From Octopus vulgaris (Eukaryota), in the NCBI GenBank assembly GCA_951406725.2, contig OX597833.1, forward strand, positions 38,998,001-39,062,000: DNA of 64,000 bases. Direction: 5' to 3'. Under the pieces are notes generated by a model. The model saw only the letters and a program-made list of their open reading frames with translations. It did not search any database and had not been told where the DNA came from. A program made the translations under genes and the position numbers. This document shows, one piece after another, positions 4,827-50,040 of the stretch. The first letter of the stretch is position 1, and every line of letters begins with the position of its first letter.

Positions 4827-5242
4827 GTTGCACAATGCTAATACTTATTGAATGCACAATGTTGTGTCATCAATTAGAGTAAATTATTATCAAATAGACG
4901 GTTTTTATTATCCTGGACAAGAGGCTTTGTTCAGGTCTATTAATGTAATCCCACAGCAGAATGTTTATCAAAATAAAACAGAAGTCACACATAGTCCCTT
5001 ATTTCTGCTAGCCTTGAGCCACTGAATAACTGAGTAAACTGCAGATGCACACAAGACTTATCATAAAGAGAGACATTTCTTGATGCAGAAAGAGTAACCA
5101 TGATAAAATGTCATCATGTGACCATCAGGTTGTGTCACATGATATTCTCATGTTAAACACTTGCAATAATAAAGCAATTATACTACACATGTATTTTCAG
5201 GAGAGACATTTAATAATTTCAAAGAAGTACAAAATCCTAATA

Positions 5243-5780
5243 TCATTCAAAGTACGATCCTCTGACATCAATGTATTTGTAGCACTCAATCTACTTCCTG
5301 AAGGCTCCATGGAAAGTGTTGAGGACCCTTGTCACAAACTCTTTCATCTCCTTCAGCTTGGGAAACAACAAAGTCACTAGGAGCAAGGTCTTGACTGTAG
5401 GGAGGGTGAGGGACAATTTTCATGCCCGTCTCTCTCAAGTAGTTGGTAACCAGAATGGAAGATTGGACTTGAGCATTGTCCTTTTGCAATGAAATCTCCT
5501 TGATTTCCTTCAAAACCTCCACACAGTACTCTTTGTTGGCTGTCTGGCCAGAAGAAACCCAGTAGATGTAGATGATGCTCTTACTGTTAAGAAAGGGAAC
5601 AATCATAAGCTTTCTGGTAAACTTGCTTTGCCTGGTCTCTTGTGTCAGCCAAATACAGATGCTAGGTTTATACAAGTTAATCTATAAGCAGTCTGAAGCA
5701 TTTCTTACGTTTCTGTAGCATTGTTTCCCAGCTTAACACAAAAATTTATTGCATAGTGAGCTTTCAAATTGTCTTTACAT
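5243..5780 (-). mobile_element. Mariner (Tc1/mariner) transposase remnant, internally deleted
   Basis: Motifs YAINFCVKLGNNATET (N-terminal), GQTANKEYCVEVL, HPPYSQDLAPSDF and C-terminal IDVRGSYFE*; frameshifted. Confidence 0.9.
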
Positions 5781-6690: not shown

Positions 6691-6868
6691 TATGACATCA
6701 GTTTCAGCAATTTCCATTGTCTCATCAGTTAAGCCTGTTTGATTCTTCAGTTTTTTCTGGACTTGCTTCTCTATTAGTATATATGTTTTTGCCATCTAAA
6801 CTAATGGATGATTTAGTGATTCACTAATGTGTATACATAAATTTAATATAAACAGCAGGTTGCAATGT
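6691..6868 (-). mobile_element. Inverted partial copy of the hammerhead element
   Basis: Reverse complement aligns to about 6907-7085, including ggcttaaCTGATGAgacaatggaaattgctGAAActgatgtca. Confidence 0.9.
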
Positions 6869-7289
6869 CACATGTAGTGACAATTATAATTCTCCTTTTT
6901 GGTGAAACACTGCAACCTGCTGTTTATATCAATTTTATATATATACACATTAGCGAAATACTAAATCATCCATTAATCTGGCTGACAAAAGCATATATAC
7001 TAATAGAGAAGCAGCTCCAGAAAAAGCTGAAGAATCAAGTGGGCTTAACTGATGAGGCAATGGAAATTGCTGAAACTGATGTTAGTATTAAGAATTCTCA
7101 ATCTGCATTTTTCAGATAATTCAAGTCTCTGTTAGTGTATATGTATACATTTATGTGTATTGACTACAGCATTAGAGCATTTTAGCTCTTATTTCTAGCA
7201 ATGTAGGTGTTTCTTAAAACCCTAGTTACATTTAGAGACAATTACAATTTTCCTTTTTGGTGAAACATTGCAACCTGCTGTTTATACTA

Positions 7290-7293
<4 letters not shown>
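6867..7293 (+). mobile_element. Retrozyme-like / PLE pseudo-LTR element, 358-bp unit plus about 68-bp terminal direct repeat
   Basis: 6867-6935 is repeated at 7225-7293; central hammerhead; followed by (TA)n; homologous to 46951-47355. Confidence 0.8.
7027..7115 (+). ncRNA. Type I hammerhead ribozyme
   Basis: Stem I CUUAA(7044-48)/UUAAG(7088-92); CUGAUGA 7049-55; stem II GGCAAU-ggaa-AUUGCU; GAAA 7072-75; stem III ACUG-augu-UAGU; GUA cleavage triplet 7085-87; distal helix 7027-35/7107-15. Confidence 0.85.
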
Positions 7294-7330
<37 letters not shown>

Positions 7331-7849
7331 TTATAATTATATATATAGTTTGCTTGAAATATATATATATTACATGCTGAAGCAACCTGGTACCATCTCT
7401 GGCAGATGAGGTGTCCGGTACTGAGGAATGGCAGAAATAGCCTGAAACCAGTTTCCTTCTCATTCTCTCTTTCTCCCTCTCGCTCTCATTCTCTCGTTCT
7501 CTCATTTTCTCACTCTCTCATTCTCTCTCTCCCATTCTTACCTTCTCTCTCATTCTTTCTCTCCCTCTCCCCCTCTCTCTCTCCGTTCCTCCCTTCACAC
7601 TTACCCTTTCTGACCATTTCTTTATTCCTGTGATGTTTTCATCTTCTCTCCTTTGCACTTCACTTCACACCCCTCTGTCTGTCTATCTGCCTGTCTGTCT
7701 GTCTGTCTTTTTTTTCATTCTCTCTCGTTTTTCCTCTCACATTCTAATTTTTCTTTCTTTCCTGTAAAAAACAAAAAACTTGTGCAAACATACACTTGTA
7801 GAAGTCTATATGTATACTATGTATGTATATTTACTTACATACAAGTATG

Positions 7850-40895: not shown

Positions 40896-41289
40896 AAAAG
40901 AATATATACATACATACATATACATATACATACATAGTGTGTGTGTGTGTGTGAGTGTATATTGTCAATTTATCATATATCAGAAAAAGAAGCACACTCT
41001 AAAGCATGGAGTCTGATGAGCTGTCCAACCAAGAACACCAAAATATAAGCAAGCAAGACAAATGTAAAGATACAAAATATACAGATTAATTACAGATTAT
41101 ATATATATAACCGGCAAAATTCACTACAGAGAAAGACTTTTGAAATATAACCCAAAATGTAATTGGTAGAACTATATACATGTTCAATCTCATGCAGACG
41201 CCTCGTGTATAGTTCTGCAAATTAAATTTTGCTATGATGATCACACTGACGAGTTGCGAACATCTACATAAGTGATTACGTAAGTGGTA

Positions 41290-46885: not shown

Positions 46886-46950
46886 CAAATCACTGTGGAA
46901 ACTAGGGAGTTTCATTATTTGATAATATATATATATATATATATATATAA

Positions 46951-47355
46951 TAGTTTTCCTTTTTGGAGATACATTGCTAAACAGCGCTGCCTAATTTAAT
47001 TACTTGTATACACATTAGTGATTCACTAAATCATCCATAGATTTCTATGGAATAAACATATATACAGCTGGTGATCTTGCCCGGAAACTGGTGAGTTGCG
47101 CTGAACCTGCTGATGAGTGCTTTGATCATAAAGCCGAAACCATTGAAGGTCTAGGGATATCACAGCTGCCACTTTAAGCTATTTACAGTTGCTGTAAGTG
47201 TGTATGTATACAATTATGTGCACTGAATGCAACATCAGAGCACTTTAGCTCTTATTTCTAGCATTGTAGGTGTTCTAACATCCTCTGTCATACTTAATGA
47301 CTATTATAGTTTTCCTTTTGGTGATACATTGCTAAACAGCAGCCTAATTTAATTA
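46951..47355 (+). mobile_element. Retrozyme-like / PLE pseudo-LTR element, about 356-bp unit plus about 50-bp terminal direct repeat
   Basis: tagttttccttttgg.gatacattgctaaacagc...gcctaatttaatta at 46951 and 47307; preceded by (TA)n; shares conserved blocks with 6867-7293. Confidence 0.8.
47100..47166 (+). ncRNA. Type I hammerhead ribozyme
   Basis: Stem I CCUG(47106-09)/UAGG(47152-55); CUGAUGA 47110-16; stem II G(u)GCUUU-gaucau-AAAGCC; GAAA 47136-39; stem III ACC-auugaa-GGU; GUC triplet 47149-51; distal GCUG/CAGC. Confidence 0.9.
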
Positions 47356-47363
47356 TATACATC

Positions 47364-47423
<60 letters not shown>

Positions 47424-47793
47424 TGTGCATTGTGCATGTATTTGTGAAAGTATGTATGTAGCATTGTGTGTATATCCCTGAATGACAGCTGTATTAATGT
47501 TATCCTCCCACTGCCACTCCATATTTGTCACACAACTTTGTTCTCCCCTTCCCTGATATCAGTCACACCCACAATGTCTTCACATTTCCCTCATACAGCA
47601 CTCTTGTGTCCTCCTCATTTTATCAAATAATAGTCCAATCCCCCTCAGGGATTATAGATTTTTATTGAAATCCATTTAGCCTATAATTGAACTGGATGTT
47701 AGTTTAACATGTATGCAAAGTTTTGTCAAGTTTGGTTCACTACTGTAGGCGGCAAGGTGGTAACAGACAGATAGACAGAAATTGGCATTTATG

Positions 47794-50003: not shown

Positions 50004-50040
50004 TGTTTTACGTTTCAAGCAGACCTCTTCTTCAGAAACA
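50004..50040 (-). ncRNA. Minimal (PLE-type) hammerhead motif, stem II partly decayed
   Basis: UGUUU-CUGAAGA-a-GAGgucugCUU-GAAAC-GUA-AAACA; stem III reduced to the palindrome ACGU. Confidence 0.6.

Follow-up and report, generated by a model that had tools for sequence, protein, structure and literature searches.

An old, decayed type I hammerhead repeat in the Octopus vulgaris genome: likely a non-autonomous PLE (non-LTR retrozyme) of a large dispersed family

The satellite hammerheads of newts, schistosomes and crickets are type I ribozymes lying in a repeat unit of 300–350 nt. Non-LTR retrozymes are type I hammerhead repeats of 170–400 nt (350–390 bp in mussels), which are expressed as circles and have been proposed to use the PLE machinery (PMC7229834). 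Their connection with pLTRs is drawn in a 2026 preprint, in which monomers are numerous and one of nine tested dimers cleaved (bioRxiv 10.64898/2026.07.22.740005). The features listed for PLE insertions are 5' truncation, partial tandems, an inverted 5' copy, a tail, and a bias to (TA)n (PMC8557442). For an anole PLE, two internal start sites of reverse transcription have been described, both downstream of the hammerhead and bounding the tail; uncut RNA was the substrate that dominated in vitro (PMC11167929). Palindromic helix III and covarying families have already been described for metazoan hammerheads, the subfamilies being 'full of covariations' (PMC4209133). Literature searches showed no description of such a family from an octopus or any other cephalopod. 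PLE families are listed in a 2026 annotation of octopus repeats, whose main text names neither hammerhead nor ribozyme (PMC13282606); the present family may already be catalogued in repeat libraries (e.g. Repbase, Dfam) without its ribozyme.

The DNA analysed is a stretch of 64 kb (the window). When both strands of the window were scanned with a descriptor, two type I hammerheads having stems I and III came up and no more: one in locus A (6867–7303, plus strand) and one in locus B (46946–47357). Each locus comprises one unit of about 355 bp, a repeated tail and one hammerhead motif. The motif of locus A has its core at 7049 and a predicted cut after A7087 (GUA), and that of locus B its core at 47110 and a predicted cut after C47151 (GUC). 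The direct repeats lie at 6867–6942 and 7225–7303 (period 358) and at 46946–47002 and 47302–47355 (period 356). The earlier note on this DNA, which had described two hammerhead-bearing repeats of about 356 and 358, was right about both loci; its "unit length" holds for the period, while the structure itself is a unit with a tail of about 55 nt and not two ribozyme-bearing units. The two loci align at 78% identity over 162 nt (E 8e-34), plus 71% over 121 nt. A truncated, inverted piece (6695–6894, minus strand, 84% over 204 nt) lies head-to-head at the 5' end of copy A; it includes a hammerhead core of its own, which breaks off past stem III.

Searches of the 64-kb window with Rfam yielded nothing at gathering score; across seven loci searched at E<=1 there was no hammerhead match, and the hits were microsatellite-driven miRNA and snoRNA models only. 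No PLE protein match was found in the window or in the units. A sigma-70 promoter scan stayed at chance level, the model not being relevant to an animal. Hammerhead-like cores of other families were also seen in the window, at 41246 (plus strand; long stem II, minimal stem III), at 50035 (minus strand; a motif also present in L057 and L198) and at 7421 (plus strand; degraded).

Locus B begins at a (TA)n tract (46925–46949), which is the likely insertion target. The other parts of the locus lie on the plus strand. The first copy of the tail, a 5' partial unit, occupies 46946–47002 and is 89% identical to 47302–47355. It is followed by a conserved block (47008–47038) that is present in subfamilies A, B and C and was not found in families D, E or G (subfamily C and families D and E are described below). 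Within the block lies a 15-nt near-palindrome (47015–47029) which looks compensatorily changed in copy B; in both of its arms, though, the departures from the majority sequence are of the CpG-decay type, which is a source of false covariation. Folding, with a constrained fold, predicts a long rod at 47058–47212 in which stem I is extended and the hammerhead sits at the tip. The type I motif itself (47106–47155), which is backed by the descriptor scan and by family covariation and whose cleavage is a prediction, consists of stem I (47106–47109/47152–47155), the core (47110–47116), stem II (47117–47135), GAAA (47136–47139) and stem III (47139–47141/47148–47150). Downstream, three small hairpins are predicted in 47237–47301 (47237–47252, 47269–47282 and 47287–47301), and an invariant 20-nt block, a candidate RT-recognition signal, lies at 47244–47263. 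The conserved blocks named in the earlier note are indeed present, at 47008–47038 and 47237–47282. Directly after the third hairpin falls the short 3' end of the family; the tail (47302–47357) ends, according to insertion mapping, at its main 3' end, and (TG)n follows at 47364–47427. Since copy B spans about -201 to +206 relative to the cut, its "terminal repeat" is the family's tail of about 55 nt.

The genome searched measures 2.8 Gb in 227 contigs and is rich in microsatellites. A first look gave 1,064 candidates for B and 2,146 for A; among the 40 scored for each, the best other copies were 82% (B) and 84% (A) identical. The 20-mer shared by both loci has 1,115 exact genome matches and its reversed control none, and sampling based upon it brought out a third alignable subfamily, C, plus two further families, D and E. 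The majority sequences of A, B and C have periods of 356, 353 and about 351, and a mutual identity of 76–81%. A tree built from 68 copies sets each of A and B apart on one side of a starred branch (100/99 and 100/100), and likewise C except for one row. A and B are separate subfamilies of one large dispersed family. The branching is star-like with long end branches (median 0.11; the bootstrap had not fully settled), a pattern which fits putative bursts of insertion followed by decay. No A, B or C copy longer than 200 nt is more than 90.5% identical to its own subfamily majority, the intact B stem-III motif has eight matches at <=1 mismatch in 2.8 Gb, and the copies sampled carry no sign of recent activity of A, B or C, though younger subfamilies may exist outside this sample. 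Family D has a unit of about 480 bp, its copies being 87–96% identical to the majority. Another hammerhead-like repeat family was seen in L123 (2226-3125), L024, L035 and L102; in L123 it forms a tandem of about 494 bp with copies 99% identical, much younger than A, B and C.

Locus B itself is an ordinary decayed repeat. It differs by 12% from the B majority; its CpG sites have decayed, its stem III is shorter and its rod weaker. It shares the G-C closing pair or the GUC triplet with L004 and L009, and by these markers the three copies form a sub-lineage of B.

The earlier note considered the helices of the two loci to be completely rewritten. Stems I, II and III of A and B do pair as it described; the extent of the rewriting was overstated, since a comparison of the subfamilies shows 7 of 15 pairs swapped, all compensatorily, 8 of 15 identical and none broken. 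Part of the difference between the stems exists because copy B is decayed: its stem III has 3 bp, whereas stem III is a perfect palindrome of 12 nt in the B majority, and of 14 nt in C. In the 14 of 33 subfamily A copies that could be matched, the stem III loop reads CG (5), TG (6) or CA (3), which implies that it is probably a CpG-decayed palindrome. The rod, about 155 nt long, gives z-scores of -5.8 to -7.2 with the majority sequences; single copies fold less stably (z -2.7 for A, -1.2 for B). The hammerhead fold is not that of minimum energy, lying 6.4 kcal/mol above it in copy B and 1.7–6.7 kcal/mol in the majority sequences. Since the gap of the B majority (6.7 kcal/mol) is similar to that of copy B, the energy gap does not decide activity. 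On the descriptor scan the hammerhead is confined to one strand of the unit.

Covariation was assessed at 29 pairs in 50 of the 68 full-span copies, using a structure derived from the same sequences and cells that reflect three lineages. Paired cells amounted to 85.4%, compared with 76.4% in shuffles and 30–43% when the structure was slid. Family-wide covariation was proposed as a check in the earlier note. The double-change cells exceed the shuffled figure (152 vs 61.6; 0/500). Counted by pairs, those with at least one such change are not significantly more numerous (18 vs 14.9, 46/500), and RNAalifold predicted no pairs at all from the 50 decayed copies. When the B fold is mapped onto A, 13 of 14 double changes are still paired (P 2e-4 to 2e-3), and 14 of 83 pairs are broken. 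Within subfamilies, non-CpG deviations from the majority number 32/493 in the core, 52/1000 in the block and 1121/9291 elsewhere, so that core and block are about half as variable as other sites (core, P 8e-5). We read this as probable selection on the source templates, the alternative being slower decay of these sites in the copies. The 11-nt core is intact in copy B, in 5 of 18 B copies and in 20 of 50 copies overall. Long-term selection, as the earlier note had proposed, can be retained for the hammerhead fold and the unit length in the source lineage, given the periods, the compensatory changes and the low variation of core and block.

A total of 118 distinct A, B and C insertions (85 found by similarity, 33 by the 20-mer) were mapped against the cut site, after duplicates and loci below 90 bits, including D and E, had been dropped. 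The 3' ends fall at +185 to +222 in 81 and at +135 to +175 in 20, that is, at one of two sites in 101 of the 118; the alignments overrun a few bases into TA flanks, which places the long 3' end near +205. The 5' ends are scattered from -507 to +128, and no pile-up at the cut site was seen among the 118 insertions. Head-to-head (5'-5') inversions occur in 38 and tail-to-tail (3'-3') inversions in none. A microsatellite adjoins the 3' end in 82, as against 14% of control windows. The cut site is crossed by 94 of the 118 copies (14 of 33 in the less biased 20-mer set), so the usual template cannot have been a linear monomer made by cutting. Five of the 118 span two hammerhead positions, and none forms a long tandem array. 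Locus B has a single ribozyme and therefore cannot release a circle; circle-junction reads are not to be expected from it.

The family has an intact-core type I hammerhead with three stems, in a low-GC, non-coding unit within the 170–400 nt of retrozymes. It resembles the non-LTR retrozymes of animals in this short AT-rich, non-coding unit and its ribozyme, in the presence of several sequence families per genome (PMC7229834; bioRxiv 10.64898/2026.07.22.740005), in its monomers and dimers, and in the co-occurring PLEs. It departs from them, as they are defined by tandem repeats, in the rarity of copies with two hammerhead positions; furthermore, stem III is palindromic and at least 5 bp long rather than 1–2 bp, and all sampled A, B and C copies are old. 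The A, B and C insertions display the 5' truncation, partial tandems, 5' head-to-head inversion, tail and (TA)n or other microsatellite targets of PLEs and pLTRs (PMC8557442, PMC4209133, PMC11167929), and share with them two 3' ends separated by the tail, a hammerhead upstream of the 3' end and a palindromic helix III. Unlike PLEs, the units examined hold no RT or GIY-YIG ORF, and the tail is about 55 nt rather than 30–40 nt. The newt, schistosome and cricket satellites have the same ribozyme type and a similar unit, but are organised in arrays and not as dispersed, 5'-truncated insertions. The class of non-LTR retrozymes is already described, and by structure and insertion marks the family joins it, cleavage and circles being predicted.

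The fixed 3' ends, scattered 5' ends, 5'-5' inversions and microsatellite ends are PLE hallmarks, and they point to a non-LTR retrozyme or non-autonomous PLE. The likely account, in our view, is that the enzyme of an autonomous PLE once wrote a dispersed type I hammerhead repeat of about 355 bp into (TA)n DNA, and that locus B is one such copy, now old and decayed. In the mechanism we propose, rare tandem copies carrying two hammerheads would be transcribed, and the ribozymes would excise unit-length RNA, possibly aided by pairing of the palindromic stem III. The excised RNA would probably be circularised, although as template for the next step we would give circle and uncut multimer about equal weight. 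A PLE protein would then bind the hairpins and the 20-nt block, about 70–150 nt downstream of the cut, and nick AT-rich DNA, with reverse transcription beginning at about +150 or +205. It would run back through the cut site and stop at random, often with an inversion, to give at most about 1.9 units; copy B would be a dead-end product of this kind.

Potential partners are plentiful in this genome, where we counted 6,136 GIY-YIG candidates and many intact 781-aa ORFs combining RVT_1 (28.9 bits, cut-off 29.6) with GIY-YIG. A CxxC motif before the endonuclease suggests that the 781-aa PLE may be of the Neptune or Nematis type. This young 781-aa PLE (L122:434-885 and 5221-5672; L201:2894) has pLTRs of about 450 bp that are 99% identical, a separate upstream ORF of 359 aa that matches nothing in Pfam, and a hammerhead-like motif, minimal in form, in which U3/A8 replace C3/G8. 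In 57 stretches downstream of PLE ORF ends (about 50 loci, some of them duplicates) the 20-mer did not rise above shuffled sequence, the best match being 14/20. The search for a PLE with a block-bearing terminus covered 30 GIY-YIG loci, 7 wider PLE regions, a further 20 such regions and 50 block sites out of 1,115; none was seen. Neither an ORF upstream of the unit, in the loci screened, nor homology of the unit to the PLE terminal regions sampled in this genome was found. Two loci were considered as links between retrozyme and PLE and are read instead as neighbouring or nested insertions. One of these (L121:4987-5190, minus strand) is a divergent relative whose insertion site is a GAA repeat; its block is degenerate, its hairpins match, and a hammerhead-like core is present. 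The other (L238; G000:C1:131862000-131867600) has a block-bearing hammerhead unit with a period of about 333, its second hammerhead cut off, joined to a mid-ORF fragment of a PLE RT (junction about aa 325) beside an 88%-identical inverted PLE copy. Its junction may have arisen by nested insertion or, possibly, when reverse transcription jumped between a retrozyme RNA and a PLE RNA.

The junction at L238 is also what one might cite for regarding all of the copies as nothing but pLTRs left by an autonomous PLE whose insertions were 5'-truncated and whose ORF escaped our sampling, given that PLE pLTRs do carry type I hammerheads and tails. We think this improbable: units follow one another at a period of 351–356 bp with no ORF between them, and at L238 the join falls in mid-ORF while that PLE's own 3' end lacks the block. 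The earlier note's suggestion of a replicating small-RNA family, in the sense of RNA-to-RNA copying or present activity, is not supported: the copies show retrotransposition hallmarks and star-like decay, and no evidence of RNA-to-RNA replication came up. A viroid-like RNA that replicates today and is written into the genome now and then would account for the rod-like fold and the conserved unit length, and RNA-RNA replication has been named as one possibility for the mussel circles (PMC7229834); with a hammerhead on one strand alone, no copy closer than 90.5% to its subfamily majority and so few intact B stem-III motifs genome-wide, we regard it as very improbable.

Equally slight, in our estimate, is the chance that the host has kept locus B as a functional self-cleaving element. 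Its intact 11-nt core sets it among a minority of B copies, and a contig of another run matches 46982–47262 with 7 differences in 281, a match that says nothing on expression, as contigs (those of three runs were covered) show neither ends nor strand nor circles. At such divergence, however, an intact core is common by chance, as the figure for all copies indicates, and copy B bears the CpG decay, shortened stem III and weakened rod described above.

The 20-nt block extends beyond the alignable subfamilies. Families D and E share with A, B and C only this block of 20–30 nt and are otherwise unalignable; as both were found via the 20-mer itself, the exact identity of the block is partly ascertained, and the majority of all 25 D copies, chosen by overall similarity, still has it. 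It follows the predicted cut by 93–94 nt in A, B and C, by 123 in D and by 78 in L238; six of the 17 copies of family E have a hammerhead-like core with no evident stem I, and there the block comes 155–178 nt downstream of the core. A predicted hairpin of differing sequence comes after it in A, B, C, D and E, and the 3' region folds modestly (z -1.0 to -2.9). Because it sits 55–110 nt upstream of the two fixed 3' ends, the block is a plausible candidate for an RT-recognition signal. Lying so shortly before the 3' ends, it may be a protein-binding site; the alternatives are a promoter or a processing element. A protein-coding role was rejected, inspection revealing no open frame common to the families. 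A metagenome scan with the 20-mer returned two exact matches in unrelated context, taken as chance. As far as literature searches show, an exact 20-mer with a variable hairpin, downstream of hammerhead-like cores in unalignable families, is new. Perhaps the block and hairpin form a cis signal by which one PLE RT recognises many unrelated ribozyme RNAs, a proposal that we advance tentatively and would rate somewhat short of even. As an RT signal, the block would play the part that a common 3' tail plays for SINE-LINE pairs.

The mobilisation of animal retrozymes has so far been inferred mostly from co-occurrence and from similarity to pLTRs. In the octopus family the marks of PLE-type insertion can be read from individual copies, and the 20-nt block is a short candidate RT-recognition signal that lends itself to testing. 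If the proposal for the block is true, animal retrozymes would have a defined signal for their mobilisation, and the same block would be a portable tag for insertions primed by a PLE.
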